Shown: positions 37,126 to 60,300 of the stretch, piece by piece
How positions within the stretch are numbered: position 1 is the stretch's first letter
Layout of the letters: the number at the start of each line of letters is the position of its first letter
Assembly (NCBI GenBank): GCA_041658255.1
Contig: JBBAAQ010000001.1
Location: 100,368 to 164,367, forward strand
From: Candidatus Woesearchaeota archaeon
GTDB lineage: Archaea > Nanobdellota > Nanobdellia > Woesearchaeales > UBA9642
Direction of reading: 5' to 3'
Length of the DNA: 64,000 nt
Made by a program: the position numbers and the translations under genes
Notes under the pieces: model-generated
What the model saw: the letters and a program-made list of their open reading frames with translations, nothing else
Database searches by the model: none
What the model was told of the DNA's origin: nothing

Positions 37126-38619
37126 TTGTTAGTTAATAACAATTTATATATAGCGTCTAGAATATGTGAAGTCATGTTCGATATCATTGTGGGGCGTAAC
37201 GAAGCAGATAGGGAAAAATTCGGTGATAAAGGCACTGTTTTTATCGGTAAACATTATGTGAAGATGGGGCGGACTACAAGCCTGAGTAATAACATATTTC
37301 TTGATGTCACCCGTGCGCATGTTTTCTTCGTCGTGGGAAAAAGGGGTTCGGGGAAATCGTACACGATGGGCGTCATTGCAGAAGGCATTTCTGACCTCCC
37401 CCCTGAAATCAAGAATAATATTTCAGTCATACTCCTTGATACCATGGGTATCTATTGGACCATGAAGTATCCGAATCAGAAAGATAAAGGACTTCTCAAT
37501 GAATGGGGGCTTTCCGGAAAGGCGCTTGATGTCAAAATTTATACGCCGACTGGTTTTTTTGATGATTTCAGAAAAAAAGGTATCCCGACTGATTATCCTT
37601 TTTCTATTAAACCCTTAGAACTTGACGCCGGAGACTGGTGTATGAGTTTTGGCGTGCAATCAAATAATCCTATTGGTGTCTTAATCGAAAAAATAATTTA
37701 TGCACTTAAAGATCGTCATGAAACGCAGGGAATAGAATATGCGATTACGGATATTGTTGCAATGATCGATCAGGATAAAGAAGCAGACAGTAATACCCGA
37801 AATGCTGCAAAAAACTTATTCTTTAATGCACGCAATTGGGGAATTTTTGAACCAGAACTCACAACTCAAATAGTTTCTTCTACTCTTCAACCTGAAAAAA
37901 AGTCTTCGCTTGACTATAAGAAAAAAACTACTGTTGCAACTCCGATATCGCATCGTGCAACACCACTTTCAGATCTTGCAAAAGGCGGGCAAGTGACTGT
38001 CGTCGATCTTTCCTGCTATGCGACCATGCCGAATTCCTGGAATATTAAGAATCTTGTTGTTGGACTTATCGCAGAAAAATTATTCATCCAACGCATGATT
38101 GCACGTAAAGACGAGGAATATGCACAGATCCACAAATCCATTAATTTATTCGGTGAAGAGCAGACAAAGAAGTTTGAGTTTCCTATGGTATGGCTCGTCA
38201 TTGATGAAGCGCATGAATTCTTGCCGCACGACGGAAAAACACTTGCCACAGATCCACTCGTAACGATTTTACGTGAAGGACGACAGCCGGGAATATCTCT
38301 TATCCTTGCAACCCAGCAGCCCGGAAAAATCCATACTGATGTTATGACCCAATCTGATGTGGTGATTGCGCATCGCATCACGGCAAAACTGGATACAGAA
38401 GCACTCGGTGCATTAATGCAAAGTTATATGCGTGAAGGACTCGTTGAACAACTTGACGATCTTCCGCGCGTCAAAGGCGCTGCAATCATCTTCGATGATA
38501 ATAACGAGAAAATGTATCCGATGCGCTTGCGACCGCGATTGACGTGGCACGGCGGCGAAGACCCATCAGCGCTCCCGAAACAAGACGAGGGGTTTGGCGA
38601 GGATGTGTTTAAACTATGA
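37126..38619 (+). CDS. HerA/FtsK-superfamily (DUF87-like) P-loop ATPase
   Basis: N-terminal IVGR..G..GTVFIGKH; Walker A GKRGSGKS; Walker B VWLVIDEAHEF; ILATQQP, VVIAHRIT. Confidence 0.7.
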   Translation: MLVNNNLYIASRICEVMFDIIVGRNEADREKFGDKGTVFIGKHYVKMGRTTSLSNNIFLDVTRAHVFFVVGKRGSGKSYTMGVIAEGISDLPPEIKNNISVILLDTMGIYWTMKYPNQKDKGLLNEWGLSGKALDVKIYTPTGFFDDFRKKGIPTDYPFSIKPLELDAGDWCMSFGVQSNNPIGVLIEKIIYALKDRHETQGIEYAITDIVAMIDQDKEADSNTRNAAKNLFFNARNWGIFEPELTTQIVSSTLQPEKKSSLDYKKKTTVATPISHRATPLSDLAKGGQVTVVDLSCYATMPNSWNIKNLVVGLIAEKLFIQRMIARKDEEYAQIHKSINLFGEEQTKKFEFPMVWLVIDEAHEFLPHDGKTLATDPLVTILREGRQPGISLILATQQPGKIHTDVMTQSDVVIAHRITAKLDTEALGALMQSYMREGLVEQLDDLPRVKGAAIIFDDNNEKMYPMRLRPRLTWHGGEDPSALPKQDEGFGEDVFKL

Positions 38620-39020
38620 ATGCAATGACTCTACCACTCTCTCGAAAAAAAACAATAACGTTATTGAATGCATTTATCGCGGATGTATTGCCGAAAAAGC
38701 AGTGGTTTTTATCATGTAAACCATTTATGAATGCGGCAGTATTTTATGGTTCTCGTGCGAAAAACAATCACCGTGCTGACTCTGATATTGATATACTGAT
38801 ATTTATGCCGCTTGCGGTAGAGAAGAAATATACTCGAGGGGAATATGTGTATAATTATTACGGACATCATATTAATATTGTTATCCGATCTATTGAACGG
38901 TTAAGAAGAATTGCTGCATTTAGAGAAAAGGATTTATTCGAAGCAGAAATATTCCGTATGGCTGAGATTATTTGGCAGAAAGATACCGAAGTTGCACAAT
39001 TAATAAAAAAAATAATTTAG
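38616..39020 (+). CDS. minimal nucleotidyltransferase (MNT, Pol-beta superfamily) translationally coupled to the upstream ATPase
   Basis: VFYGSRAKNNHRADSDIDILIF (G[SG]x9-13Dx[DE] NTase motif); ATGA overlap with the ATPase gene. Confidence 0.7.
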   Translation: MNAMTLPLSRKKTITLLNAFIADVLPKKQWFLSCKPFMNAAVFYGSRAKNNHRADSDIDILIFMPLAVEKKYTRGEYVYNYYGHHINIVIRSIERLRRIAAFREKDLFEAEIFRMAEIIWQKDTEVAQLIKKII

Positions 39021-44935: not shown

Positions 44936-45436
44936 GTGAAAGGTCTTTCAAAAAAGGAAGTTGAAATTATTGCGCATCTCGAATTTGAGCAAACGTATTT
45001 CTTTACACGAGAGACCATCAAACAATTCTTCGAAACGCCACAGCACATTTCTGACTTCATATTTGGGCTGAGAACAAAAGGTCGGGTTATCAAGATAAAC
45101 CGCGAAAAATATTATCTTATACCAATAAAATCGCGTAGTGGAGGATGGTCAGAACATCCTTTTATTCTTGCAGATGAGATATGTGATGGCAAAGATTATG
45201 TTATCGGCGGATGGGCGGCAGCAAAATATTGGAAACTTACAGAACAAATACCTGCGCAGATAGATGTATATACTACAAAGAGACAAGGCACTTATAATAT
45301 AATGAATATGCGGTTTGTGTTTCACCGGACAACTGTTCGAAAAATACGTAGTGGAGTCAAGAAAGCGATAGAACAACATCCCTTCGCAATTATTTCAAAA
45401 GACGAGGCTAAACAATGGTACAGACAGAGAAAGTAG
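44936..45436 (+). CDS. AbiEi-like antitoxin / transcriptional regulator (putative)
   Basis: 166 aa; overlaps the start of an AbiEii-like NTase gene, as in type IV AbiE TA loci. Confidence 0.5.
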   Translation: MKGLSKKEVEIIAHLEFEQTYFFTRETIKQFFETPQHISDFIFGLRTKGRVIKINREKYYLIPIKSRSGGWSEHPFILADEICDGKDYVIGGWAAAKYWKLTEQIPAQIDVYTTKRQGTYNIMNMRFVFHRTTVRKIRSGVKKAIEQHPFAIISKDEAKQWYRQRK

Positions 45437-45846
45437 ACAAACAATTTATTGCAGACTTAGTCGGAAAAACTTCATTTAACGAGACGCTTCTCGCTAAGGA
45501 TTATTATATCACAAGAATACTCTATCTTTTAAAAGATATAAAGGGAATATATTTCAAAGGCGGAACAGCGCTTCAGAAAATATTTCTCAACCATTCACGA
45601 ATAAGTGAGGACATAGACTTTACACTAAAAAAATCAGTCTCAGAAATTAGGAAGGAGATAACGCAGATAATACATTCATCAAAATTATTTGGGACGAATC
45701 CGTTTAATCCCTTGTATTGCGGCATTTCTGATTTCGGGGTCCGCACTTACCGGACATATTTTTGGATAGTGTGGTCCGTGAGTAAGAAGATATTTACTGT
45801 TTTTCTTCATATTCCGACCAATCGACATGCCACATATAATTGCTAA
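45415..45846 (+). pseudogene. AbiEii-like nucleotidyltransferase toxin, 3'-truncated (only ~90 aa of the NTase N-terminus is intact)
   Basis: YFKGGTALQKIFLNHSRISEDIDF is the AbiEii/DUF1814 signature; the reading frame then degenerates where a minus-strand transposase remnant begins. Confidence 0.55.
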
Positions 45847-46234
45847 TTGGCCACTGATAACGAACATATGTGCGTTGTCTCCTGCGATTAACACAGGGTT
45901 CAGTCAATCCTTCCGTATCAAGAATTTTTTGTATTTGACGTTGAGAAGCAGTAAAACCAGCTCTTTTCAAAACATAATGTAATTTTTCTGCACCATAATC
46001 ATCACGACGTCGAATATCAACAACCCTCTTAACAAACGATTTGTTTAATGGCAAAGGAGGTCTACCGACCTTCTTTACCACATAAGCTAAGATGCCTTTT
46101 CGTTTAAATTTATCAGCCAAATAGTAAACCATTTGTCGACTTACTTTTTGAACACGTGCAATGCTTGTTGCACTCTTATTTGCACGAAACTGTTGAATAG
46201 TCCACTTACGCTTCTTTTCGGTCAATTTTTCCAT
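45685..46234 (-). mobile_element. IS transposase remnant (HTH N-terminus intact, DDE region frameshifted/truncated)
   Basis: 146-aa ORF with an HTH (IARVQKVSRQMVYYLADKF) ending around W-H-V-D-W-S; downstream coding continues in another frame (45685..45894). Confidence 0.5.
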
Positions 46235-46356
46235 AAAGTATCACCGAAAAGAAGAAAAACATCAAAAAGTTAAAAGTGTAAAGTAATTACGTACTTGAAC
46301 AAGACTGCAAGCATATAATAATATTTATAAAGTATCAATTCTAATTATGTTAATAG

Positions 46357-47376
46357 TTGAGTATATTATTGCAAATGAAAAAAAACAAGCTATTATTCGC
46401 TGCGGAACAATTATTGAGTATTAATTTACACGTAAAAAGAACCGATATACTTTTGCTTATTTATGATTCACAAACGAAAAACTTCTTTACCTACATAAAA
46501 AAAATTCTTGCTGAAAAAAAAATAGTGTATTATGAACACGTACTTGACATGTATTCAAGACCTGCAATCATGACTCCCGCAATGGCAAATAAACTAAAAA
46601 TATGTACGATTACAATCTATGGCTGTAAATGGGTTTTTGGCGAACATGAATCGTTTGCGTCACCATTATTACGTTTAGTAAAAAAATATCAGATTACACA
46701 CGTACATATGCCGGGATTAAATGATGCAATTATTAGATCAGGATTATCTGTAGATTACACAAAAGTTGCACAGTTTACCCGTAAGATCCATCAAAAGATG
46801 TTGCATAAAAAAAGCATGGTAATACAGAGTGCTGCAGGAACAAATTTAACCATTTTATTCAACCCCAACTATACGTTTGTTGCTGATGATGGAATCTTTC
46901 ATAAGGGCGGCTTAGGAAATCTTCCAGCAGGAGAAGTATTTACTTGCCCGCAACAGGTTAACGGCGTATTATGTGTTGATGGCGTTATAGGCAATCTTGT
47001 ACACCTCGACCAAAAATCACTACAAGCAACTCCGCTCAAAATAGTTATAAAGAATTCTCGGATCGTCGCTATATCCTCAAAAAATAAGAAACTCGTTACT
47101 GCATTTAAAAAAACGGTGTATAGTTGCAATAATGGAGATCGAGTAGGGGAAGTTGCTATTGGTACAAACATCTACATCCCGCAATTATTGTATGAACCAT
47201 TACACGATGAAAAATTTCCTTCATTTCATATGGCGTTTGGCGATCCAATCAGTACATTAACGAAAGCTACATGGAAAAGCAAGATACACGTCGATTGCAT
47301 TATTCTTAAGCCAACCATCATTCTTGATTTAGAACTAGTTATGGATAATGGAATATTTCAACATACTCATAATTGA
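46357..47376 (+). CDS. aminopeptidase, M29 (AmpS/aminopeptidase T) family
   Basis: NLPAGEVFTCP, GEVAIGTN, DEKFPSFHMAFGDP match conserved M29 blocks. Confidence 0.6.
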   Translation: MSILLQMKKNKLLFAAEQLLSINLHVKRTDILLLIYDSQTKNFFTYIKKILAEKKIVYYEHVLDMYSRPAIMTPAMANKLKICTITIYGCKWVFGEHESFASPLLRLVKKYQITHVHMPGLNDAIIRSGLSVDYTKVAQFTRKIHQKMLHKKSMVIQSAAGTNLTILFNPNYTFVADDGIFHKGGLGNLPAGEVFTCPQQVNGVLCVDGVIGNLVHLDQKSLQATPLKIVIKNSRIVAISSKNKKLVTAFKKTVYSCNNGDRVGEVAIGTNIYIPQLLYEPLHDEKFPSFHMAFGDPISTLTKATWKSKIHVDCIILKPTIILDLELVMDNGIFQHTHN

Positions 47377-48314
47377 ACAATAACATCAGAATTTTTTATA
47401 TACTTACGATATGGAGTACTATTAGTATAAATGCCTTTTTTTGTAGTGAACTGTTTTTTTACATTAAAAGAATCAGTCGTGGTTATACGAATAAATGACG
47501 AGCGGAGTAAAATATCTTTTTCATATGTGTTGAATTCGTCATATAAAAAATCAATATAGCATCCGCATCGAATAATGATTTTTTGTATTTCATAAAGCAA
47601 GTATTTTGTAGTATGTTTACAATAATCCACTTCTAGAAAATTAGGCATGCTCAAGTAAATATGACGACCGGGTTTTTTCTTCAGCAGACGCAATGATTGA
47701 TAAAGGAATAATTTTAATCCTTCAAGGCTATAGGGTGGATCAATAATAACGACGTCAAATGTATTAGTATGCATAGACATGTCTAATCTAAAATCAGCAA
47801 AAACAGTACGAACAGCAGGCATGGCACTGCGTATTTTATTAAGAACGCGTTTATCAATATCAAAAACAGTAATATTATTCATCTTGAATTTATGAAGCCA
47901 GAATGAATTAAAATCAGAATCTCCTAATATTGCAACGGCATTCTTTTGGTCATATTGTTCTTGAGCAATAATTCTCGTTCGTGCAAAAGCTGTCGCCTTT
48001 GTTGCACGAGTTTGATCAATACATTCATTATCAGAAGGTAGATCTTTATAAAAGGATTGTATTGTAACAGAATCGATGACCGCATACGGTTTTTTTGAAT
48101 GAGCAGAATTTTTCGATAACAAATACTTATTGAGTAGTTGTTCTGATTTTTTTGTGATTTGTAAACCGGATTTATTTTTTCGGAGGTAACCTTTTAGCAA
48201 TAGTGTATTTTGTAATTCTTTACTTGTAATACTAGTATTAGAAGTTTTTGCAGAGCAAACTGTATCTAATACATGGATAAGATCACGAATATCGATATAT
48301 GATTGATGCTTCAT
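47367..48314 (-). CDS. class I methyltransferase-fold protein with a DPPY motif and N-terminal wHTH-like region (DUF43/aminopropyltransferase-like?)
   Basis: VVIIDPPYS; AILGDSDFNSF; ATGA-style overlap with the upstream MetRS-like gene. Confidence 0.45.
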   Translation of the reverse strand: MKHQSYIDIRDLIHVLDTVCSAKTSNTSITSKELQNTLLLKGYLRKNKSGLQITKKSEQLLNKYLLSKNSAHSKKPYAVIDSVTIQSFYKDLPSDNECIDQTRATKATAFARTRIIAQEQYDQKNAVAILGDSDFNSFWLHKFKMNNITVFDIDKRVLNKIRSAMPAVRTVFADFRLDMSMHTNTFDVVIIDPPYSLEGLKLFLYQSLRLLKKKPGRHIYLSMPNFLEVDYCKHTTKYLLYEIQKIIIRCGCYIDFLYDEFNTYEKDILLRSSFIRITTTDSFNVKKQFTTKKGIYTNSTPYRKYIKNSDVIVQL

Positions 48315-49618
48315 AGTGTGCTACCTGTCATAAGCATAGTAATACTATTTTTTTGATCAGTAACAAAAGGCGTCAACATGTAATCAAGGGCGTTGAAAAG
48401 AGTTGTTTTATAAGAGTTATCCCAATTATTCGAATGTGCAAGTACCCTGAGTTGTTTTGAAATATTAAAAATTTCGTCGACAGCCTTATCTAATCGATAG
48501 TGATTCATTGCGTTATCGTACTGCACAACATGTGTAACATATTCTTCTTTAGAAAGTTTAACAACAGGTTGGGCGAAATATTTTTTTAACGGAGCAAATT
48601 TATTATGCACAAGTCGTTTGAATGCAACATACTCATCTTCAGTAAATGTTGAATTATTAAAAGGATTTTTTTTGTAAAATAAGTAGAGACGTAAATAATC
48701 TGCTGAGTCTGTTTTTAGTATGCTGTCAAAAGTAGTATTGAATTTAGTCTGAAAATAGCCGTGAAATAATATGTCTTTAGGTAACGGCTGGTCTAATGCC
48801 TCTAATAATCCAGGATAATTAATGAGATGTGGTAGTAATGTCGTTGGACCGCACACATGAATGTTGGTGGTTTTGTCATTGGCAAAGTGCAAATCGGTTG
48901 GTTGAATATATCCGATTAATGCATCAAACCACGAATATAATCGCGATCCGTCACAAAGTATTCCTTGCACATTTGAATTGCGGGTAATACAAAAGTCCTT
49001 TAAACCTTCCCGGATACTATTACGTAACTCGATCTTACGACTTTCAGGAAATACGTGTATGACGTTTAGCGCAGTTATGATTGCATCAGAATATTTAGTA
49101 GTATCAAAAAAGACTGCGGTTTCGGAATGAGTTATAGTTTCAACAGGGTTCTTTTTACGTATTCGTTGACTAATAAATGAACCAGTTAATGGATCATAAT
49201 CCCCGCGATACTCTCCAACATATAAATCGTGGTGTTCTTTTAAGAGCATATACGCATCTTTTACCGCAGCAATATGTTCTGAAGAATATGTTTTAACAGT
49301 GATAGTATTATGAGGTGCTAACACATCAAGTAGTGATTGCATTTTATTTCGATATTCAAAAAGATGCTCTTCCACAGCACCATCGCGCGGGATAGCGCAC
49401 GTATTTTCGTCCAGTCCATAAATATACTTGCACAGATGTTGATTATTTATAAAATATTTCTTGATAATATCGCTCATCACCATTTCATAGATGATCCCAA
49501 TATGTATCGGGCTTCCTGATTCTACAAAATCGGAGAAAATAGCATAATTAGCCATTGACCTTACCTTCAGAATACCAATATTTGATGAGTTCTTCAAGTA
49601 AATGGAAGTATAATTCAC
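48311..49618 (-). CDS. class I aminoacyl-tRNA synthetase-like paralog, MetRS-like catalytic core with a degenerate KMSKS (probable start at Met22, 49555)
   Basis: PIHIGIIYEMV (HIGH-like), LYSWFDALIGYI (MetRS YVWFDALxxY block), LFHGYF; no Zn knuckles or anticodon-binding domain apparent. Confidence 0.5.
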   Translation of the reverse strand: MNYTSIYLKNSSNIGILKVRSMANYAIFSDFVESGSPIHIGIIYEMVMSDIIKKYFINNQHLCKYIYGLDENTCAIPRDGAVEEHLFEYRNKMQSLLDVLAPHNTITVKTYSSEHIAAVKDAYMLLKEHHDLYVGEYRGDYDPLTGSFISQRIRKKNPVETITHSETAVFFDTTKYSDAIITALNVIHVFPESRKIELRNSIREGLKDFCITRNSNVQGILCDGSRLYSWFDALIGYIQPTDLHFANDKTTNIHVCGPTTLLPHLINYPGLLEALDQPLPKDILFHGYFQTKFNTTFDSILKTDSADYLRLYLFYKKNPFNNSTFTEDEYVAFKRLVHNKFAPLKKYFAQPVVKLSKEEYVTHVVQYDNAMNHYRLDKAVDEIFNISKQLRVLAHSNNWDNSYKTTLFNALDYMLTPFVTDQKNSITMLMTGSTL

Positions 49619-50837
49619 AAGAATAAGGTGTTTTACAACGTGAGGGTTCGCTAGCAGGCATATTTAATGCGCGATCTAAGCAACCACCCCCGCAGGCAAC
49701 TTTTATACTACAAGAATTACAATGTAATAATTTATTATACAACGTATGAATATGTGCTATTTTCGATGCAGAAAGTTGTAACTTATTCTTTTTTTGATCA
49801 AACATTCCAACGATAAATGTGCTACTTAATGGATGATTTGCATATGAGCATTCAAAACATTTTGATACGCTTCCATCGGGATTTATAACAAAAAAATCAT
49901 CCTTAAAAATTGGGCAAGTAATAGGAGTCTCTAATAAAAAATGGGTGTAAACAAGATTAAACACAGTCATTCCGCGCGTTTTACCATATTTAATCATTTT
50001 TACAAATGTTTTTGAAAATTCTTTAGGATTGCAGACAAATGAATTATTTTTTCCCCGCCCCGCAGCTAATATCGGTTCTGCATGTAAGAATCGCACACCG
50101 AATTTAGCATAATAATCGATAATTTTTTTGTATTCTTTTAACATCGGTGCAGTCATGGTTATCCTGACTTTAAAGAATGCGTTATTTTTGACAAGATACG
50201 CTGCGGTTTTTTCTACATTGCTAACACTAGATGATCCATTAACAAATGGCCGGTTTTTCGATTGATATAAACCATCCCAACTAAAATTAATGATGAATTT
50301 ATTTGCAATGATAAAATCTGCAAATTTTTGCGAAAAAACCCCGTTGGTTGATATTGAAAAAGAGAACTCTTTATCGCTAAATTGTTTGCAATATTCTACT
50401 ATAGATTTTATTGTAGGATAACATAGAGATGGTTCCCCTCCAAAGAAATTTAGAACATATTTTTTCTTATTTAATGCAATTCTATCTGACAAAATTGCAA
50501 TAATTGTTTCTTTAGTTAATATTGTTTTCTCGCTATTTGCATCAATAAAGCAATATACGCACTTCAAATTACATGCTTTTGTCAGGGTGAATGCAATATA
50601 GGAAGTATCCGCATCAGCTAAATGTGTTAATGGATTTTGGAGCGAATTATGTTTTAATAAATTTTTTAATTCTCCTGCAATATGCTCTTTAGTTTGAGTA
50701 GCGTCAAATTCAACTATCTCTTTAGTAGACCCTAAATATACTAAATACTTATTTCGATATTTAACTAAAGGTAATCCTAGTATCGAATCCATAACCCCCT
50801 CACAATAATAAAAAAGAAATAATAAATTTACGAACAC
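49548..50837 (-). CDS. radical SAM enzyme with a C-terminal SPASM domain (peptide-modifying maturase-like); probable true start ATG at 50792
   Basis: CNLKCVYCF (CxxxCxxC); C-terminal Cys cluster CNSCSIKVACGGGC...C..C; annotated start is GTG. Confidence 0.8.
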   Translation of the reverse strand: MFVNLLFLFYYCEGVMDSILGLPLVKYRNKYLVYLGSTKEIVEFDATQTKEHIAGELKNLLKHNSLQNPLTHLADADTSYIAFTLTKACNLKCVYCFIDANSEKTILTKETIIAILSDRIALNKKKYVLNFFGGEPSLCYPTIKSIVEYCKQFSDKEFSFSISTNGVFSQKFADFIIANKFIINFSWDGLYQSKNRPFVNGSSSVSNVEKTAAYLVKNNAFFKVRITMTAPMLKEYKKIIDYYAKFGVRFLHAEPILAAGRGKNNSFVCNPKEFSKTFVKMIKYGKTRGMTVFNLVYTHFLLETPITCPIFKDDFFVINPDGSVSKCFECSYANHPLSSTFIVGMFDQKKNKLQLSASKIAHIHTLYNKLLHCNSCSIKVACGGGCLDRALNMPASEPSRCKTPYSCELYFHLLEELIKYWYSEGKVNG

Positions 50838-50914
50838 ATATTAGACAAATTAGCAAATTTCTCTAATTCTTCTTGTTTTCCTAACACGTTATTGGATAGT
50901 TTTACAACTTTCAT
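50828..50914 (-). CDS. 28-aa candidate precursor peptide MKVVKLSNNVLGKQEELEKFANLSNMCS
   Basis: strong SD GAGGGG 7 nt upstream of the ATG; lies immediately upstream of the rSAM/SPASM gene; C-terminal Cys-Ser. Confidence 0.4.
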   Translation of the reverse strand: MKVVKLSNNVLGKQEELEKFANLSNMCS

Positions 50915-51142
50915 GTTTTCGCCCCTCGATTAATGAAATTATAATCGATAATAATAGTGTAGTTCTGTTATTTATATACCTTTCGCTTTTTAACACGTAT
51001 ACCCCGTAAATTTTCCGGTTCTAATTCACAATATTAAAATACTTCTTCTGCTTTAGGATAGTAAGATTGTGCATACTATTTAAGTGCGCTCCGAATCGTA
51101 TACACGCGAGACGATTATTATGCTCGGAATTATTCTCTCCTC

Positions 51143-51820
51143 TCAGAATTGATTCAGACTCTTCTGTTTCAATTTAATATTGTATGACTCAGGATTGATG
51201 ATCATGTCGTCCTTTGCAGCAAGGATTTGCGTCTTGAATGGAATGTTTTTTTCTTGGAGCAATCTCTTTATCTCTCGCGTTACTTCTAATGGATCTTTGA
51301 CATCATGAGTAAAGTTTGTTAAGATATACAGTTCAGGATTGATCTGTTGTACTAATTCTACGATTTGTTCTTTGCTTAATGTATGTTCTCTGCTCGAATA
51401 TTCGCTGATGATGATATTGGTGTCTTTCAACTCCTCAGCAAGTTTTTTCGTGTAAGTGATTGTTGTGAAGTACGTGAGCATATATTTATGTGTTTTTATC
51501 TTAAATGCTAAAGAATCAAGTTTTGTCTGGATGAAGATAATATCCTTTTTTGGTTCTGGATTCTTTGGAGTGATAAACCTTGCGTGAGATATCTTCTGGA
51601 GATATGCTGCATCATTCGTGTAGATATCGTCTTCTTCTGTCGCAAGGATGAAATCTAATTCCTCGATTTTAGCTTGAAGTTTGGCGAGTTGAATGATTGA
51701 GCCGATTCCCGGATTGATAAGAATTTTCTGTTCATTGACGAGGAGAATCCCGCCTGCACTGCGCCCCTTTTGCATACTTTGGTAATCACTTCCACTTCCT
51801 AAGAAAATGATCTGCGACAT
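51143..51820 (-). CDS. hypothetical protein with a weak metallo-beta-lactamase-fold-like N-terminus lacking HxHxDH
   Basis: IIFLGSGS..GRSAGGILLV..ILINPGIGS pattern; no His cluster. Confidence 0.35.
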   Translation of the reverse strand: MSQIIFLGSGSDYQSMQKGRSAGGILLVNEQKILINPGIGSIIQLAKLQAKIEELDFILATEEDDIYTNDAAYLQKISHARFITPKNPEPKKDIIFIQTKLDSLAFKIKTHKYMLTYFTTITYTKKLAEELKDTNIIISEYSSREHTLSKEQIVELVQQINPELYILTNFTHDVKDPLEVTREIKRLLQEKNIPFKTQILAAKDDMIINPESYNIKLKQKSLNQF

Positions 51821-51892
51821 AATAGTTATAATCCTTCAAACTTTATTAAGATTGTTGTTGTGGAATAGGGTTATTACGGATTATAGCAATTT

Positions 51893-52013
51893 CATGAGTG
51901 CAGTATTCATAGCAATGATTGCTGTTAAAGTCAATAATGTGTTTTTGAGTTTACTCATACTTTCTCTAGGATGTTACTATTTATAAAGTTTACTGAAGTT
52001 ACCACTAGAAAGG
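51893..52013. repeat. 121-nt duplicate of the promoter plus signal-peptide 5' end of the gene at 52744..54204, copy 1 (encodes a 25-aa remnant MSKLKNTLLTLTAIIAMNTALMKLL on the minus strand)
   Basis: ~85% identical to 54139..54259. Confidence 0.7.
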
Positions 52014-52294
52014 AGCAACATAGAAAGATTTATATATGTGTTATCACATACTTATGTGTAAAGGTGATCATTATGAGTAATATAACATTATCAATGCCAA
52101 ACGATGTTCATTTGCAGATGAAAGAATTTTCCGAAGTGCGATGGAGTGAAGTTGCGCGTAAAGCGATTATAGAAAAACTTGAAACATTGCGCATGGCTGA
52201 ATCGTTAGCGAAAAAAAGCAAACTTACAGAAAAAGATGTTCAAGATTTTAGTAAAAAAATTAATACCCTTGCTACAAAGAGGATTATGAAATGA
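51971..52294 (+). CDS. antitoxin-like small protein (VapB/RHH-type); probable start 52073 after an AAGGTGA SD
   Basis: MSNITLSMPNDVHLQMKEFSEV..; stop overlaps the PIN gene start (ATGA). Confidence 0.5.
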   Translation: MLLFIKFTEVTTRKEQHRKIYICVITYLCVKVIIMSNITLSMPNDVHLQMKEFSEVRWSEVARKAIIEKLETLRMAESLAKKSKLTEKDVQDFSKKINTLATKRIMK

Positions 52295-52719
52295 ATATTG
52301 TTCTAGATTCGAACATACTCTTTTCAGCACTCATTAAAAATTCTACAACTAGAAAAATAATTCTTGATTATGACGGATTCTTCCTCTTTCCATCATACAT
52401 ATTTATCGAGATGGAACATCATAAAGATGAATTATACAAAAAATCTGAACTTTCAGAAAAAGAATTCGATGATCTACTCCATTTAATTCTTTAAAAAGTA
52501 TTAATCGTACCACACGCAGTCATACAACCGCACATTAAAGAAGCAATTATTATTGCTCAACCTATCGATATCAATGATATGTTATTCATCGCATGCGCAC
52601 TCGCATATCATAAAAGCATCCTCTGGTCGAATGATAAGAGATTAAAAACACAATCAAGAATTCGCGTGTTGAATACTCGAGAAATAATTTTATATTTCCA
52701 GGAAAAACAAAAATCTTGA
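52291..52719 (+). pseudogene. vapC: PIN-domain VapC-like toxin interrupted by an in-frame TAA at 52492-52494
   Basis: N-terminal MNIVLDSNILFSAL (PIN Asp box); the same frame continues after the TAA: ..DINDMLFIACALAYHKSILWSNDKRL.. to a TGA at 52717. Confidence 0.55.
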
Positions 52720-52743
52720 TTTTTCTTTCTAAAAAAATTAGGA

Positions 52744-54204
52744 TTACGGATTATACTTATCTCTCATCACTTGTTCTAGACTTTTATTGCTTAGTGCAGT
52801 GTATGTTGTTCCGTCATGTCTGGTGAGTATGATCATTGTTGCATTTCCGCTTGTTTTTCCGAGATAATTTTGCCAACTCGGTGCGATTTCCATTTGTTTA
52901 GTTGAGTCCCACTTTGTGTTTGGCGGATTCATGAAATGTGCTTGTAACATTGTGATATCGATTGGATTTTTGAAATCTTTACCAAGGTTTCCTACTGCCG
53001 AGTTGAATAGTCCATTATAGTCTGGATCGTCGTTTCTTCCGAAGTATGTTTCTCCTGTCATTACTTCTTTGGTTAATGAAACATCCATAGCATATAACCC
53101 GAATGTTAAATTCTCGCTTTTGAGATATGCTTGATCGTATACTGTTGCTGCTCTGTTTATTATTCCTGTTGTTGTGTTGAAGTCTACTACTGTTGCCGCT
53201 GCAAATCCTCCTGCGTCTCCAAATCCTATTTGGTGCATTCCGTTCGGCGTGTTTGGATATTCTTGTCCTGTTTCGAATTTTTTGTTTTTGAAATACGTTG
53301 TGTCGAGATTGTTTATTTTAGCGTTTTGGATGAGTGTTGCTTTTTGTTTGTATATTTCGTAGAATTGTTTTTGTACAGCATTGAGTGTATCGACTACAAA
53401 ATGTGCTGTTAATGGCTTGAGAGTTCTTACATTACCTTTTTGTGTAGGGTCCATCTTGCTTAGTTTATTATACTTTTCCATCACACTCGCAGGCATGTTT
53501 GTTTTGTCTTTTATGTATTGATCTATTGTTGTATCCTGACTGGTAGAGAATGTTGTTTGCCATCCCCAGATGTTTTGTCCTTCGATAGTCATTGTGTATT
53601 CTGTTCTTCCTGTTGTTTTTCCTAGTCGTTGTTGTTCTGTTCTCGCGTTTATTTGTTCTTGTAATGCGCGTTCTAGTGTTTGTGGGTTTTCGCGATGTAC
53701 TATTGATGTTTTTCCTGCTTTGAATTTTCCTTCTTGTTCTATAGTATATGGATATATCCCGCTGCTTACACGCGCTCCTGCATCATTTTTTTTATCCCAG
53801 TAGAGTCGGTGTCTTCCTGCGCTTTGTTCTGCATTGTAGAGTTCGCGTATTTTTTGTCCGAGTATATTGAATACTGTGATTTTTGTTTTTGCTGTTTTTG
53901 GTAGTGCGTATTCTATTGTTCCTTCTGCTGCTATTGTTTCTATTCCTGTTATTGTTTCAGTATTTTCTTTATCTTTTATTCCTGTTACGAGTAGATTATA
54001 TCGCCCTTGGTTATCTGTTCTTGTCGTCTGTGTATTAATAGGATTATTTTTTTCCGCAATAGTCACAGTCACGTAGCTTGCAGGTTTCTTGTCGAATATT
54101 GATTTGATTGTTCCATTAATATTTCTATAAGATTGTGCCATGAGCGCAGTATTCATAGCAAGAATTGCCGTCAAAATCAATAATGTATTCTTGAGTTTAC
54201 CCAT
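52744..54204 (-). CDS. secreted protein with an N-proximal FlgD-Ig/T9SS-sorting-domain-like beta-sandwich
   Basis: signal peptide; KITVFNILGQKIRELYNAEQSAGRHRLYWDKKNDAGARVSSGIYPYTIEQEGKFKAGKTSIV. Confidence 0.5.
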   Translation of the reverse strand: MGKLKNTLLILTAILAMNTALMAQSYRNINGTIKSIFDKKPASYVTVTIAEKNNPINTQTTRTDNQGRYNLLVTGIKDKENTETITGIETIAAEGTIEYALPKTAKTKITVFNILGQKIRELYNAEQSAGRHRLYWDKKNDAGARVSSGIYPYTIEQEGKFKAGKTSIVHRENPQTLERALQEQINARTEQQRLGKTTGRTEYTMTIEGQNIWGWQTTFSTSQDTTIDQYIKDKTNMPASVMEKYNKLSKMDPTQKGNVRTLKPLTAHFVVDTLNAVQKQFYEIYKQKATLIQNAKINNLDTTYFKNKKFETGQEYPNTPNGMHQIGFGDAGGFAAATVVDFNTTTGIINRAATVYDQAYLKSENLTFGLYAMDVSLTKEVMTGETYFGRNDDPDYNGLFNSAVGNLGKDFKNPIDITMLQAHFMNPPNTKWDSTKQMEIAPSWQNYLGKTSGNATMIILTRHDGTTYTALSNKSLEQVMRDKYNP

Positions 54205-54259
54205 ACTTTCTCTAGGATGTTACTATTTATAAAGTTTACGGTTGTTACCACTAAAAAGG
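54139..54259. repeat. 121-nt repeat, copy 2 (native promoter/5' end of the 52744..54204 gene)
   Basis: aligned to 51893..52013. Confidence 0.7.
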
Positions 54260-54326: not shown

Positions 54327-57300
54327 TTGATAAAAAGTAGTGTGAGGCGGTTGATGATGAATAAACGCGTACTATATTTATTCTTTTTATTATTTATTTT
54401 AGGGATGTTATCTATTTTTATTATTCCTTATGTTTCTGCTGCTACAGCTGTTGCGGGTGATGAAGGTAGTGGTGGTGGTGGTACTTGTATTCCTACTACT
54501 TGTACTGCTTTGGGTAAGACTTGTGGTTCTTGGAGTGATGGGTGTAGCGCAACATTGAACTGTGGTACATGCAATTCTGGGTATACGTGTACGAGTGGTC
54601 AATGTGTTGCTGATGCAACTTCATGCACTACCACTGGTTGCTCTAATGGATATATTTGTGATCTTTGGGGTGGTGTATTTGCATCACCCTATTGTAGTTG
54701 TCCGAGCGGAACAGTACAAATTACTCATTATGATTATACTCTTAATAGAACGATTATTGATAGAACATATACGGGATATCAGGGGTGTAGTGTTGAAGTT
54801 TCCCCGGGTGTGTGGACTCAAATACAATGTGTAAATACTCAAACAGATAGCCAGAATTGTGGTTGGTGTGGGAATGCTTGTTCATCAGGTCTTTCCTGTG
54901 TTAGTGGTAATTGTCAATGCCCGACAGGTCAGACATTATGTAATGGTGCATGTGTAGGTACTGTTAGCGATCCTGCTAATTGTGGCAGGTGCGGCAATGT
55001 TTGTTATGCGCCTAATACGAAATGTTATTCAGGGTCTTGCGTGCAATGTATAAAAGCAATATTTGATTGTCCTGATGGACCTTATGAGTGTATAAATAAT
55101 CGATGTGTTCTACGTTGTGAAAGTCCAAATTTTTGTGGACCGGTAAATTCACTTAATACGGATTCTGATGAAGATCGCAAAGCCAATTGTGTAGGATCAG
55201 ATTGGTGTCTTTCATGCATTAACGGTTATGCTAATTGTAATGCGAATAGTGGTTGCGAGACAGACATCACTACAACAAGTAATTGTGGAAGTTGCGGGAA
55301 TGTATGTACTGCATCAAATCGTTGTCCTGCAGGTACAAGTACACTATTTTATATCTCTCCGACATGTAGTGGTACTTGCGGTACAGTATCGACTGGAAGT
55401 AGTCCATGTGCATCATCTTCATATTGTTCAAATAATATTTACTATATCCAACCCGGAGTATGTAATGGTCTGGGAACAGCATGCGCATTAGGTATAGCAC
55501 AGGCGCAACCAAGACTTGGAGAAACAAAGAGCTGTATTGATTCTTCCACACTTAGAACGACAACGTATAATACCTGTGATGCAAATGGGTATATAGGAAC
55601 ATCTAACGATGTGAATTGTCCTGTGGTTTATGGTGCTGGTTGGACTTGTCAAGTTGTTTTTGGTGTTCCCCAATGTAAGAGGCCACAAACTTTCTGGTGG
55701 AAAATGGATTCTGATGGCGATGGACATTATGTTGGTTCAGCAGTGGAAAGTAGTACATCTCCTGGAACAGGATATGTGGTTGTTTCTAGTCAAAATGTGC
55801 TAAGCGATGATTGTAATGATAATAACGCCGCTATCTATCCTGGAGCGACTGAATTATGTAATGGTGTTGATGATAATTGTGTGAATGGTGCTGATGAAAC
55901 TTTTGCACTTGGTGAAGTGTGTTCTTCTCCTGCAAATAATTGTGGCAAGACTAGTCTCGGGAATACAGTGTGTAATACTGCGCAAACTGGCGTAACTTGT
56001 AATGCTCAGAAACCTGCTGACGCATCACCTGCACCAAACACACCATATACTTCTCCTGCAAATAATTGTGGTGCTACCAATACTGGCGTATATGTATGTA
56101 ATGCAGATAAGATAAGTACCTCAGGCAATGTTCAGAAGCCTGTTGATGCTTCTCCTGCTCCGAATACTGCGTGTACTTCTGCTCCGAATAATTTAGGCGC
56201 TACTGCTTCTGGTTATTATCAATGTAGTGCTGATAAACTTTCTACTTATTGTAATGCAGTAAAGCCTGCTGATGGGTGTTCAGGCACTCCTCCAACAACA
56301 TCGTGTGGTACGTGTGGAACAATGACTGCTCTGTGTAGTGGAACAATCTGGACGTATACTGGTGCATCTTGTTCGTCTACAGGTACAACGCAACCACAAT
56401 CCTGTCTTGCAGTTAGTGGTTGTTCTGGTTCATTGACACAGACATGTACACTTCAAGGTTCGAATTATAATTGGGTTAGTGGTTCATGTTCATCATTATT
56501 AAATTATTGTGCAGGTACATGTATTGCTGCAGCATGTTGCACATTGAATTCAGAGTCATGTAATGGTGCCGACGACAATTGTAATGGTATTATTGATGAT
56601 CCTTGGAAGAGTGGTAGTCCAAAACTTGGTGATTCATACACTTCTCCTGCGAATTCTTGTGATGCAAAAAATTCTGGAACATGGGTGTGTAACAATGATG
56701 GTTCTGGAATAACAGGTAGTGTTGCTGCACCTGCAAATCCTTCTCCTGCTCCAAATACTGCTTGTACGTCTTCTGCAAATTCTTGTGGTGCGACAAATAC
56801 TGGAACATATTTATGTGCTGCTAACGGACTCTCAACTTCTTGTTCTGCTTTCGCACCTCCAAATCCTTCACTTGCTCCAGGAACTGTATGTACTTCTCTT
56901 CCCAATAATTTAGGTGCTACTGCTCAAGGTCAGTTTCAATGTAGTGCTGATAAACTTTCTACTTATTGCGATGCCATAACTCCTGCTCCTGGATGTACTG
57001 GTTCTGCGCCTACAACATCGTGTGGTACGTGTGGAACAATTACTGCTCTGTGTAGTGGAACAACATGGACGTATACTGGCGCAACTTGTTCAGCTACTGG
57101 TAATACGCAACCACAATCGTGTCTTGCAGCTAGTGGTTGTTCCGGTTCATTGACACAGACATGTACACTTCAAGGTTCTAATTATAATTGGGTTAGTGGT
57201 TCATGTTCATCATTATTAAATTATTGTGCAGGACAATGTACAAATCAATCGTGCTGTTCACTTCTTTCAGAATCGTGTAATGGTGCCGACGATAATTGTA

Positions 57301-60300
57301 ACGGTATTATTGATGATCCTTGGAAGGCTCCTGCTAATCCAAAACTTACTGATGTATGTACTGCAACAAATATTTGTGGTACAAATACTGGCGCGCAGGT
57401 CTGTACAGTTGATGGTACAGGAATAACTTGTTCTGTAACTCCTCCGGTGATGCCACTTAATTATGGGACACCTTGTAATTCTACTCCAAATAATTGTGGG
57501 ACTACAACTCCCGGAACTATAAAATGCGATGGAACATGTTCAGCGACTAAACCTCTTGATGTTGCAAGTTGTTGTGCAGGTACTCCTGCATCAAGATCAT
57601 GTACTGATCCTAATTGTGGTACTCAAACACAATTATGTTCAGGATCTGTATGGACTTATACTGGCGCATCATGCGCAGGTACTGGTGCTACAACAACACA
57701 ACCCTGCACGATCAATAGTTGTTCTGGAACGCAATCACGTAATTGTCAGTTAAGTGGTCTCTGGACAGGATGGGGTACATGCGTTGCAACTAATCCTCAA
57801 CAAGAAACCTGTAATGGCGTAGATGATAATTGTGATAGTAAGATTGATAATGAATTATCCCTTATTTCACGATCATGTACTGTTGGTAATGGTTCATGCA
57901 CGCGCACAGGAACGCAGACACAAGTATGTAATGGTATTTCTGGTCTAGGTTGGGGTGTATGTAGTGTAACACCTGGAACTCCAACAGCTGAAACATGTAA
58001 TAATATAGACGATAATTGTGATGGAACAGTTGATGAATGGCCAACATGTAATATTTGTGGCGATAATCGTTTAGGTGGTAGTGAGCAATGTGATGATGGA
58101 AATACAGTAAGCGGTGATGGTTGCAGTGCAACTTGTAGAACAGAAGGTGATGGTTCATGTAATAGTCTTTGCGGATTATTATTCCCTGCATGCCAATCAG
58201 GATTTTCTTGCGAATGGTCTGGGATAGTACAGCGTTGCAGAAATACTGCTTGTTCAACAGATTCAACATGTGGTTGTTGTACTCAATCCGGATGTAATGA
58301 TAATAATGGATGTACAACTGATGTGTGCACTACTGGTGTTGGTTGTAGTAATGCTGCACGTACTGGTGCATCATGTGGTACAAATCCTTTGGCATGTAGT
58401 GAAAATCTTGCAGTTATCAAGAATTATGCATGTAGTGCGACAGGTTCATGTGATGATGCTCTTGCATCAGACACTACAACAAATTGTGGTAATACGAATT
58501 ATTGTTCAGGATTTACTAATACATGTGTTGCATGCGCGTCTAATACTGCAAATTGTGATCAGGCTAATGCTGACTGTGAATCTCATTTATTGACTGATAT
58601 GAATAATTGTGGAACATGCGGGAATAAGTGTGGTGCAAGCCAGACATGTAGTGCAGGATCGTGTGTTACACCAGGTACATGGTATCGCGATGTTGATGGT
58701 GATGGCTACGGTACTCCTGCAAATTCAGTACTCAATCTCACTCAACCTGCAGGGTATGCAAATAATCCTGCTGATTGCAATGATAATAATTTTGCAATTA
58801 AACCGACTGCAACAGAATATTGTGACACTATAGATCAAAATTGTAATGGATTAATCGATGAAACATGTGATAAAGATGGTGATATGTATGCTGATCCTAC
58901 ACTTGCCTGTGTGGGAAGTTTTAGGGCAGGAAATGGTTTAATCTATGGTTGCGCGACTAATGGTCTTGACTGTAATGATAATTCTGCAACAACTTATCCG
59001 AATGCTCCAGAGATCTGTGGTGTCCGTGGTGGTAACGGGATCAAGGAGAATTGTGCTGCCAGCGTAGCAGATGTTGGTTGTAGTATTTGTGGTGATAAAA
59101 CCATCAATACACCCAATGGTCTTGGAGTAAATGAGGAATGTGATTATGGCTCGTGGTGTATGACAAATTTAGGAGTTAAAACTGTTTGTTCGCAAGATAC
59201 TGATTGTGCAGGGATCGGCGACGGATTATGTCTTCCGCGTGACAGTGTGAATTGTTCAGCACAATGTATGAGTACTGGTTGTGCTATCACTGGTCTTAGT
59301 ATTACTCCTATTGATTGTCAAGATAGAGCTATCGATGAAAAGATTTGTACAACAGGAAACACACTCAATATTTCGATACAATTTAGCGGCGCAGATTGCG
59401 CGAAAGCAAATATTGTACAAATAGACTACCATGATCAAAATAGAACATGTATGATTACTACTACCAGTACGCAAATTTTGGGGATAACAAAATCTTTCTT
59501 TACCGGAGGAAATGGAACATATGTATTTACCTATGTATTCCCGACAATACCTTCTTCATGTAGTGGTGCACCACTTAAACAGGCAGAAGCAGGGCTCTAT
59601 ACCGGAAACATTGCAAATATGCAAACAACATGGATTCAAAGAACAAACAGTATCGCTCCATTCCCAGGAATAAGCCCGACAGTCATACTTTATGATGCGT
59701 CACAACTCTGTACTGCAACTTGTCCGGAAGCTGCAATACTTGCAAACGAATTAGGAACATATACTGATATTGCAACTGCAGTAAAAACAAATCCTGCAGC
59801 AAAACAGAAATTTATGAACTTCCTGAAGAACGAAAATTGTTTCACGAGAAGCGCGCAAAAACTCAGAAATGCATATTGTGGTTTTGAAAAAAATACTGCT
59901 ACGAACGTCATTACTTATAAAACAAATACTACAGTAAAAATAGGGTTACCGTCACTAAAAGAAATAGAAGCGTCATGTACGATATTATATCCTATCGGAG
60001 CAGCACCAACGATTAGCGTCAGTGCAAAAGGCGGGTCTGGAACATACCATTATGCATACACATTTGGAGACGGAAAAACAGTAAATAGTACCACATCAAC
60101 TGCTACGATACCCAATGCGACACAAACGACAGGAGGATATGAACCAAGAGTTATAATAACTGATAGCAAAAGGAATACGAGAGAAATTGTTTGTCCAAAA
60201 ATTAATATAACCAGCACCGATTCATCTTCCAGAGGGTATTGTGGTGATGGAAAATTAAACGATGGTGAATATTGTGATTACGCAAACACTACAATGGTTT

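Follow-up and report, generated by a model that had tools for sequence, protein, structure and literature searches.

A 64,000-nucleotide (nt) stretch of contig JBBAAQ010000001.1 (hereafter, the window), belonging to the metagenome-assembled genome of a DPANN archaeon named Candidatus Woesearchaeota by NCBI, carries an operon in which a small open reading frame (ORF) is followed by genes for a radical S-adenosylmethionine (SAM) enzyme with a SPASM domain, for a protein derived from methionyl-tRNA synthetase (MetRS), and for a transferase of the DUF43/BpsA_C family. The operon is real, intact, and nearly unique: its core, a radical SAM gene accompanied by a peptide gene, is of a known kind, while its MetRS-derived and DUF43 tailoring genes make up a combination undescribed in the libraries and papers searched. 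The explanation favored here, tentatively, is a pathway of the type that makes ribosomally synthesized and post-translationally modified peptides (RiPPs), with a new tailoring composition. The operon is probably accessory and horizontally acquired, and its product would be either a peptide carrying post-translational modifications or a small molecule assembled on a peptide scaffold and then cleaved from it.

An earlier reading of this DNA, referred to here as the original prediction, had considered the combination unlike any described class of RiPP, and this assessment is borne out. No Pfam, NCBIfam, or PADLOC model matches the combination of radical SAM, MetRS-derived, and DUF43 genes, and it is not described in the literature found on MetRS paralogues with radical SAM enzymes, on DUF43 proteins with radical SAM enzymes, or on RiPPs of DPANN archaea.

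Organization of the operon

All five minus-strand ORFs originally placed within 47367-51820 are present there, yet the description of these ORFs as a single tight operon stands only in part. The three enzyme genes are indeed translationally coupled. The MetRS-like gene (48311-49555, minus strand, 414 residues) overlaps the stop codon of the radical SAM/SPASM gene (49548-50792, minus strand, 414 residues, with its ATG at 50792) by 8 nt, and the transferase gene (47367-48314, minus strand, 315 residues) overlaps that of the MetRS-like gene by 4 nt, within the ATGA at 48311-48314 that had been noted from the outset. The other overlap, first given as 71 nt (49548-49618), shrinks to the 8 nt of 49548-49555 with the ATG at 49555 used by the gene callers, which has an AAGGT-type Shine-Dalgarno (SD) sequence upstream. 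Ahead of the radical SAM gene lies a 28-codon ORF, MKVVKLSNNVLGKQEELEKFANLSNMCS (50828-50914, minus strand), the candidate precursor peptide gene; the 35 nt between the two hold a GAGGGGG sequence (50795-50801). Together, these four are treated here as the operon.

The fifth gene, in contrast, is not part of this tight arrangement. It encodes a protein of 225 residues resembling the metallo-beta-lactamase (MBL) fold (51143-51820, minus strand), and between it and the small ORF lies a 228-bp spacer containing a TATA-like box, read from the sequence as TATATAAATA (50969-50978, minus strand). The G+C content at third codon positions (GC3) also differs, being 0.22-0.29 in the three enzyme genes, which is unusually low in a window whose genes mostly fall between 0.30 and 0.45, and 0.42 in the MBL-like gene. 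This difference in composition makes its membership doubtful. The TATA-like box itself lies approximately 55-64 nt upstream of the small-ORF ATG, is preceded by an A-rich stretch resembling a B recognition element, and is, judging from its sequence, a candidate archaeal promoter for the operon. Scans for bacterial (sigma-70) promoters and terminators gave site counts no higher than those of shuffled sequence, and an Rfam scan of 45500-52800 returned no known RNA or riboswitch.

The radical SAM/SPASM enzyme and the loci of its relatives

The originally proposed radical SAM/SPASM assignment is supported by a complete set of Fe-S ligands. The CX3CX2C motif is formed by C74, C78, and C81, and the seven-cysteine SPASM pattern is complete (C293-X13-G-X4-C312, C358-X2-C361-X5-C367-X3-C371, and C392); these Fe-S cysteines are invariant across eight relatives (alignment A4). 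The Pfam Radical_SAM family is matched with 51 bits, and the fold is preceded by an N-terminal extension of about 70 residues, similar in length to those seen for the relatives in the alignment. The best match in NCBIfam is PapB, with 112.6 bits where the cut-off is 340; a nif11-type family (90.5 bits), HxsB, DynA, CefB, QhpD, and SCIFF come next, and all of these are peptide maturases, most of them thioether-forming. No NCBIfam match comes near its curated cut-off, and the protein falls outside the PapB family of ranthipeptide maturases both in score and in the absence of a CX3D/E-type substrate. The alternative that it is an anaerobic sulfatase-maturating enzyme was also considered: that family is matched with 84.4 bits against a cut-off of 349, and no sulfatase is present among the called genes within approximately 10 kb on either side.

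The nearest relatives of the enzyme in a database of 5.8 billion sequences are only about 25% identical to it. When the loci of eight such relatives were inspected, a short, Cys-rich peptide ORF was found adjoining the radical SAM gene in five. The ORFs beside P0003 and P0005 encode 48 residues ending in YAITCDCVCVG/N, that beside P0010 encodes 54 residues ending in VAPCCRCGDEYSEAH (...VAPCCRCGDEY), and locus L015 has a 64-residue CTCTCTC peptide. In Thermococcus prieurii (P0018), an uncalled, SD-preceded ORF of 33 residues, MVRKAEIKGLPSPSAAGNGNCGNGCCENGMSVF (ending ...GNGNCGNGCCENGMSVF), lies upstream and an ATP-binding cassette (ABC) exporter gene downstream. The three other loci show a cysteinyl-tRNA synthetase (CysRS) gene followed by two radical SAM genes with no adjoining peptide ORF seen (P0006), large unknown proteins (P0007), and a set comprising an MBL protein, an aminotransferase, a carrier protein, and an ATP-grasp enzyme (P0012). 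By analogy, the five loci with peptide genes suggest, at the level of the class rather than as proof for this operon, that the enzyme acts on a peptide.

Two of these loci merit description in their own right. In T. prieurii (L009, GCA_054657655.1), the small ORF at 5855-5956 is directly upstream of a 414-residue radical SAM/SPASM gene, which in turn overlaps the ABC exporter gene by 4 nt; the locus probably represents an archaeal RiPP cluster that has gone unannotated. In the P0006 locus (L010/L011, 4571-8221), a full-length CysRS gene overlaps the radical SAM gene by 4 nt and a second radical SAM gene comes next. The context there is one of bacterial housekeeping genes, and this second occurrence of a class I aminoacyl-tRNA synthetase (aaRS) beside a radical SAM enzyme of the same broad clade may be a coincidence.

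The candidate precursor peptide

The peptide encoded by the small ORF has a helical, charged N-terminal part resembling a leader and a C-terminal part ending ...NLSNMCS. It had been described as Cys-terminated; its single cysteine, Cys27, is in fact the penultimate residue, and the sequence ends in Cys-Ser (...NMCS), with no acidic residue following the cysteine. The ORF is absent from the output of all gene callers and from the NCBI annotation, whose protein numbers run consecutively across the gap. The strong SD attributed to it is present, as a GAGGGG sequence (50922-50927, minus strand) 7 nt upstream of the ATG.

This hexamer occurs at only nine sites on the two strands of the 64 kb. The pairing of GAGGG with an ATG 3-10 nt away is not enriched, however, with seven cases observed in the whole window against 7.5 expected. 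Two of these seven precede the small ORF and the radical SAM gene, and an SD is lacking altogether from most genes of the window. This makes the small ORF plausible, although not statistically proven, the grounds for its reality being its position, its SD, the TATA-like box, and analogy with the relatives. A T6 run after the ORF is ordinary, as there are 91 such runs on that strand, and no paralogue of the ORF was found in the window or in the loci fetched. Two further assemblies of the locus (L004 and L005) are 100% identical to it and thus provide no strain variation with which selection on the small ORF could be tested.

The MetRS-derived protein

The product of the third gene belongs to the Pfam family tRNA-synt_1g and, as originally proposed, is a MetRS-like protein with a degenerate KMSKS motif, which has become KFNTT (271-275). 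Its best sequence matches in the PDB are to MetRS1 structures (E ~1e-18). An AlphaFold model (predicted local distance difference test [pLDDT], 88.8; predicted template modeling score [pTM], 0.90) superposes on complete MetRS chains with TMq values of 0.71-0.82, and this superposition includes a shortened C-terminal helical bundle. The architecture therefore comprises a Rossmann core, a minimal connective peptide with neither a zinc knuckle nor any cysteine, and this shortened bundle. The earlier statement that tRNA-binding regions are missing thus requires revision: an anticodon-domain-like bundle is kept, while the conserved Asn and Arg columns that contact the anticodon are gone.

Scores against MetRS models are far below the respective cut-offs (110.4 bits against 598 for PRK12267, and 101.2 against 336 for TIGR00398), and the KMSKS motif is absent; the protein is therefore probably not a housekeeping MetRS, and these observations do not favor the originally stated refuting condition that it be the sole, full-domain MetRS of the genome. 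No other MetRS is encoded in the 64-kb window, which is part of a 188-kb contig.

Comparison with 59 bona fide MetRS sequences, in which 63 columns are at least 85% conserved, shows that 35 of these near-invariant columns are kept. Retained residues include H18 and G20 of the HIGH motif, D49 and E50, the WFDALxxY block (W209, D211, A212, and Y216), H243, H265, R289, and W378. The HIGH motif reads HIGI (18-21), with its first His and its Gly unchanged; the fourth position also varies in short bona fide MetRS proteins (HVGN and HIGT). Conversely, the strand-1 Tyr (now E12), the H-G-x-K sequence after the DE pair, the GKD motif (GPT, 236-238), KMSKS, and the zinc-knuckle insertion have been lost; the KMSKS and GKD columns are at least 92% conserved in the 59 sequences. 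Among the anticodon-domain columns, the Asn and Arg are replaced (R314 and N318) and only the Trp (W378) is kept.

The pattern of retention is not uniform across the active site. Residues D49, W209, A212, Y216, and H243 sit in columns that are 98-100% conserved, and we take them to be the equivalents of D52, W253, A256, Y260, and H301 of the methionine pocket of Escherichia coli MetRS. From these alignments, the methionine pocket appears preserved, while the contacts to the nucleotide (ATP and ribose), the acceptor, and the anticodon appear remodeled. As the KMSKS lysines and the ribose-binding Asp are both lost, this protein may instead have a non-catalytic role, or one that uses aminoacyl-tRNA.

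A distant relative of the MetRS-derived protein

A full HMMER search of 1.84 billion representative proteins identified a single protein, P0031, that shares the derived features of the MetRS-like protein. Its GPN and NFKNSF sequences correspond to the altered motifs (common patterns GPx and xFxxxF), and the two proteins share 35% identity across the C-terminal 200 residues. All other matches were ordinary MetRS proteins with intact motifs, including a MetRS from the DPANN lineage Aenigmarchaeota. Since the altered motifs are common to two proteins at this level of identity, they appear to be old and maintained rather than a product of recent decay.

P0031 is, however, only half a gene, located on a contig of 1.7 kb (L006, 538-1503). 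A signal-peptide or transmembrane helix and a beta-rich segment stand in place of its N-terminal half, an arrangement that reflects either gene fusion or decay, or else chimeric assembly. The P0031 stop codon overlaps the start of the next ORF by 4 nt. The 63 visible residues of this ORF align with the N-terminus of the Woesearchaeota transferase with a Smith-Waterman score of 55, compared with 27±5 for shuffled sequences, and one shuffle in 2000 reaches that score. BLASTP found no match between the same two sequences, which leaves the shuffle test as the sole support for the resemblance; on this evidence, the MetRS-like/DUF43 pair is seen twice.

Further searches underline how isolated the operon is. 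Every one of its proteins is a singleton at 90% identity, and the MetRS-like and DUF43 queries returned only themselves from a word-indexed database of 5.8 billion proteins. No cluster was present among the 600 candidates listed in a metagenome locus scan with alignment A2, and a scan with the radical SAM protein gave one unrelated radical SAM cluster (L015). A scan of GTDB genomes yielded only one ordinary Patescibacteria MetRS, and scans of viral contigs yielded no cluster.

The DUF43/BpsA_C transferase

The resemblance of the last gene product to DUF43 proteins and aminopropyltransferases, noted originally, is confirmed by a Pfam BpsA_C/DUF43 match of 64.9 bits against a cut-off of 27 (residues 86-302) and by its GDSD and DPPY motifs. 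The protein aligns with the BpsA structures 5XNC and 2QM3 (E ~7e-8), and its Rossmann core is preceded by a helix-rich N-terminal domain of about 85 residues. The motif DPPY is a signature of amino-group methyltransferases, and weak matches to an N6-adenine methyltransferase family (Pfam) and to the MADS protein mad2 cover the DPPY region.

The catalytic features of BpsA are a GDDD motif, of which Asp159 and Asp160 are essential, and a C-terminal acidic cluster that carries the aminopropyl group (PMC12979288). The Woesearchaeota protein shares with BpsA (5XNC) the Rossmann core, the acidic DID ribose contact, and the G-D-x-D and D-P-P elements, in addition to the Pfam family. Unlike BpsA, however, it has GDSD (131-134), in which Ser takes the place of Asp159, and DPPY (192-195) instead of DPPE; its C-terminus (...TTKKGIYTNSTPYRKYIKNSDVIVQL) has no acidic cluster or tail, and Glu259 is not retained on the alignment. 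It is also encoded in a radical SAM operon rather than with polyamine genes. On its sequence, the protein is best described as a putative DUF43 alkyltransferase for a nitrogen nucleophile, with SAM or decarboxylated SAM as the donor.

The MBL-like and M29 genes

The product of the MBL-like gene was originally described as an MBL-fold protein without metal ligands. The loss of ligands is clear, with TEEDD (61-65) at the position of HxHxDH and only four His and no Cys in the 225 residues, while the fold is supported only tentatively. The protein has no Pfam family, its NCBIfam matches to RNase Z/MBL families are weak but colinear, and its single-sequence model is poor (pLDDT 42, pTM 0.41), although the top 11 Foldseek matches of that model are MBL proteins of the ElaC/YhfI type (E 7e-7 to 7e-5). 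A degenerate metallo-beta-lactamase fold is therefore probable but tentative. The Lactamase_B protein encoded upstream of P0012 was tried as a counterpart and rejected, the similarity not being significant.

On the other side of the operon, a convergent gene (46357-47376, plus strand) overlaps the 3' end of the transferase gene by 10 nt. Its product matches Pfam Peptidase_M29 with 48 bits and is labeled 'aminopeptidase' by NCBI. This protein is possibly a trimming peptidase, or else an unrelated neighbor, adjacency being its only link to the operon. Both this gene and the MBL-like gene are thus possible, but unproven, operon associates.

Comparison with known systems

The closest parallels to the core of the operon are the thioether-forming radical SAM/SPASM systems, namely the PapB ranthipeptides, SCIFF/ScfB, QhpD, and the sactipeptides. 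As in these, a small ORF is located directly upstream of the radical SAM/SPASM gene, the enzyme combines CX3CX2C with a seven-cysteine SPASM domain and an N-terminal extension, a cysteine lies in the C-terminal core of the peptide, and the best NCBIfam matches are to these families. In contrast to these systems, the peptide described here has one cysteine only and no CX3D-type motif, the family scores are far below their cut-offs, the MetRS-derived and DUF43 tailoring enzymes have no known counterpart there, and the host is a DPANN archaeon.

A parallel had also been drawn with the pathways for pyrroloquinoline quinone (PQQ) and mycofactocin. In both, a very short precursor of 22-30 residues is modified near its C-terminus by a radical SAM/SPASM enzyme, and PQQ biosynthesis additionally involves the MBL-fold protein PqqB and a peptidase. 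The parallel holds for this architecture but not for the precursor motif or the accessory families: the small ORF encodes neither E-X3-Y nor a C-terminal GVY, and Pfam and NCBIfam scans gave no matches to PqqC, PqqD, MftB, MftD, MftE, or MftF. Moreover, the 25 best NCBIfam matches of the radical SAM protein do not include the MftC model, and the MBL-like gene, unlike pqqB, is degenerate and doubtfully linked.

For the MetRS-derived protein, the pertinent comparison is with the hydrazine synthetases PyrN-C, Spb40, Tri28, and FuzG. The MetRS-like domain of these enzymes has a non-canonical KFSTG loop, adenylates free amino acids, and esterifies a hydroxylamine without tRNA (bioRxiv 10.1101/2025.08.22.671884; PMC13149037). 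They are likewise MetRS-derived, serve in secondary metabolism, and have an altered KMSKS motif (KFSTG in PyrN, KFNTT here). Nevertheless, PyrN keeps HLGH, the ribose-binding GxD, and its zinc knuckles, and the GxD is lost in the Woesearchaeota protein; the hydrazine synthetases also have cupin and N-hydroxylase partners, while no cupin or monooxygenase is encoded in the neighborhood of the operon. PyrN-C (9L8V) does not appear among the PDB sequence matches of the MetRS-like protein at E<=0.001, and matches the MetRS profile A3 weakly (95 bits). From these comparisons, the MetRS-like protein lies outside the hydrazine synthetase group, for all that the MetRS-like domains of that group are the precedent for amino-acid ligation, which for the Woesearchaeota protein is speculation by analogy.

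Two further systems are similar in concept only, with no sequence relationship found here. Peptide aminoacyl-tRNA ligases (PEARLs), which belong to the pearlin pathways, add amino acids to the C-terminus of a scaffold peptide and are LanB-like rather than aaRS-like. Cyclodipeptide synthases are derived from class I aaRSs (TyrRS/TrpRS), and have lost the ATP motifs and kept the aminoacyl pocket.

A proposed pathway

In the pathway that these comparisons would support, the 28-residue peptide is translated from its own SD, and the radical SAM/SPASM enzyme, using its N-terminal extension, binds the leader-like N-terminal part. The 5'-deoxyadenosyl radical would then modify the ...NLSNMCS core at or beside Cys27, the likeliest product, by analogy with PapB, SCIFF, and QhpD, being a thioether between the cysteine sulfur and a carbon. 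The MetRS-derived protein could activate methionine or a close analogue and transfer it, without tRNA, to a nucleophile of the peptide; alternatively, it may bind a methionine moiety non-catalytically. Finally, the DUF43 enzyme would alkylate a nitrogen nucleophile with a methyl, aminopropyl, or 3-amino-3-carboxypropyl group taken from SAM or decarboxylated SAM. Gene order, translational coupling, the fold and family assignments, and the catalytic residues kept and lost are directly observed features of the locus, while the role of the peptide as substrate, the position and nature of each modification, and the sequence of the steps are our inferences.

A more specific and quite improbable version of this scheme would make the operon the founding example of a new class of RiPP or peptide-scaffolded product in DPANN archaea, in which the MetRS-derived and radical SAM/SPASM enzymes together attach a methionine or methionine-like unit without tRNA, for example to the Cys27 thiol or to a radical-generated site, after which the DUF43 enzyme adds an aminopropyl or methyl group to the new amine.

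Several observations weigh against a RiPP-type pathway. The peptide contains a single cysteine and lacks the known motifs CX3D, NxxC, GVY, and EX3Y. A RiPP recognition element or PqqD domain was found by Pfam, at E<=10, neither in the N-terminal 73 residues of the radical SAM protein nor in the N-terminal 94 residues of the transferase, and the operon has no exporter gene, immunity gene, or dedicated leader peptidase gene. Adenylation by the MetRS-like protein is doubtful given the loss of the KMSKS lysines and the GKD aspartate. As described above, three of the eight loci inspected (P0006, P0007, and P0012) show no peptide ORF adjoining the radical SAM gene, and the last of these has a carrier-protein/ATP-grasp context. 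Finally, no homologous cluster is present in the collections searched, and conservation of the small ORF and of the gene association is thus without comparison.

Alternative explanations

The alternative that survives best, although unlikely, is a small-molecule pathway without any ribosomal peptide. Here the small ORF would be fortuitous, the MetRS-like protein would activate or bind methionine or an analogue, the DUF43 enzyme would transfer an aminopropyl or aminocarboxypropyl moiety onto an amine to give a metabolite of the polyamine or amino-acid type, and the radical SAM enzyme would functionalize a C-H bond of this metabolite. The only characterized members of the BpsA_C family are, indeed, polyamine aminopropyltransferases, but the features of BpsA that are tied to this activity, namely the second Asp of GDDD, the acidic carrier tail, and, on the alignment, Glu259, are missing from the Woesearchaeota enzyme. 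Characterized MetRS-like biosynthetic enzymes use free amino acids, and the gene for the radical SAM relative P0012 has neighbors coding for an aminotransferase, an ATP-grasp enzyme, and a carrier protein, while a search of its surroundings gave no adjoining peptide ORF. Conversely, SPASM enzymes with N-terminal extensions are overwhelmingly modifiers of peptides and proteins, and the top-scoring families for this one are peptide maturases. The small ORF is unverifiable, and the window overall shows no enrichment of SD and ATG pairs, yet the ORF has the strongest type of SD in the window, at the right spacing, and it occupies the position where the relatives carry their precursors.

An improbable alternative is that the operon encodes a system directed at nucleic acids, either for tRNA or rRNA modification or for defense against viruses, with the MetRS-derived protein as a subunit that binds RNA or tRNA(CAU), the DPPY enzyme modifying an exocyclic base amine, and the radical SAM enzyme adding another modification to a base or nucleotide. 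The DPPY motif, as an amino-methyltransferase signature, and the weak N6-adenine methyltransferase and mad2 matches are in line with this, but the best family of the transferase is BpsA_C and not a nucleic-acid methyltransferase. The MetRS-like protein does keep an anticodon-domain-like helical bundle and W378, although the anticodon-contacting Asn and Arg columns are lost and W378 is not common to P0031. Weak matches of the radical SAM protein to pVips similarly span only the generic radical SAM core of a protein that is of the SPASM type. The neighborhood is full of defense and toxin-antitoxin genes (AbiEi/AbiEii, PIN-RHH, HerA, a MORC-like ATPase, and Fic), but no PADLOC system matches, and a near-singleton distribution is at odds with housekeeping RNA modification. 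Two specific candidates were rejected: an anti-phage system, for which there was no PADLOC match and the pVip and mad2 matches cover generic cores only, and a replacement for TiaS/TilS acting on tRNA-Ile(CAU), which is at odds with so sparse, near-singleton a distribution and with the loss of the anticodon contacts.

The remaining alternative, a non-functional, decaying remnant of a transferred cluster in a scar-rich variable region, is very improbable: the 90%-identity singletons, the chimeric-looking half gene that is the only relative of the MetRS-like protein, the flanking truncated AbiEii, truncated IS3-like OrfA, and 121-bp duplicated stub, and the degeneration of catalytic motifs in three of the four proteins are all consistent with it, but every ORF is intact, of full domain length, and coupled by translational overlaps, all radical SAM Fe-S ligands are intact, the MetRS-like model is confidently folded, and conservation of the subfamily motifs with P0031 at only 35% identity implies long-term purifying selection.

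Surroundings of the operon

Both flanks of the segment bear rearrangement scars, with a truncated AbiEii gene abutting a truncated IS3-like OrfA on one side and a 121-bp duplicated gene stub on the other. On the first side, 44936-46234 encodes AbiEi (166 residues) followed by an AbiEii toxin cut to 143 residues, which runs into an opposite-strand IS3-like OrfA truncated to its HTH_28 and HTH_21 domains, without the DDE domain; this region is a disrupted type IV toxin-antitoxin module adjoining the cluster. On the second side, a 121-bp direct repeat with 89% identity is present at 51893-52013 and 54139-54259. One copy comprises the promoter region and first 22 codons (a signal peptide) of a gene for a 486-residue FlgD_ig-domain protein, and the other is an orphan 25-codon stub directly upstream of the MBL-like gene that resembles a rearrangement scar at the edge of an island.

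Accessory and conflict genes are abundant elsewhere in the window (9293-16190, 19073-20362, and 37126-39020), and include a MORC-like HATPase_c_3 protein, Fic, and a HerA/DUF87 ATPase with a nucleotidyltransferase. PIN-RHH is found at 51971-52494, and the window resembles a variable or defense region. At 16538-18508 (minus strand) lies a gene for a long RelA/SpoT homologue of 656 residues with HD, RelA_SpoT, TGS, and ACT domains; full-length enzymes of this kind are unusual in archaea, and this one is possibly a bacterial acquisition. Two very large plus-strand ORFs were also observed, of 2067 residues (54327-60530) and 1622 residues (32112-36980). The former encodes an extremely Cys/Gly/Thr-rich repeat protein with matches of the Cu-binding_MopE type and internal repeats that are about 85% identical; this protein is presumably exposed on the DPANN cell surface.

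Implications

Enzymes derived from aaRSs have repeatedly opened new chemistry in natural-product biosynthesis, and the MetRS-derived protein described here, if it is catalytic, would add a reaction type. On the more specific and quite improbable version of the scheme, it would represent a third independent recruitment of the class I aaRS fold to natural products, after the cyclodipeptide synthases and the hydrazine synthetases. Similarly, a tailoring role for the transferase would, if true, be the first function beyond polyamine synthesis for the widespread DUF43/BpsA family. As the whole operon spans only 3.5 kb, its direct synthesis and testing are feasible.

Even on a modest reading, the locus illustrates that unannotated short ORFs can hide archaeal precursor genes, of which T. 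prieurii provides a second example. If the RiPP-type pathway is correct, the operon would be a rare biosynthetic cluster in the DPANN archaea, which have minimal genomes and depend on hosts, and its modified peptide could mediate an interaction between host and symbiont.

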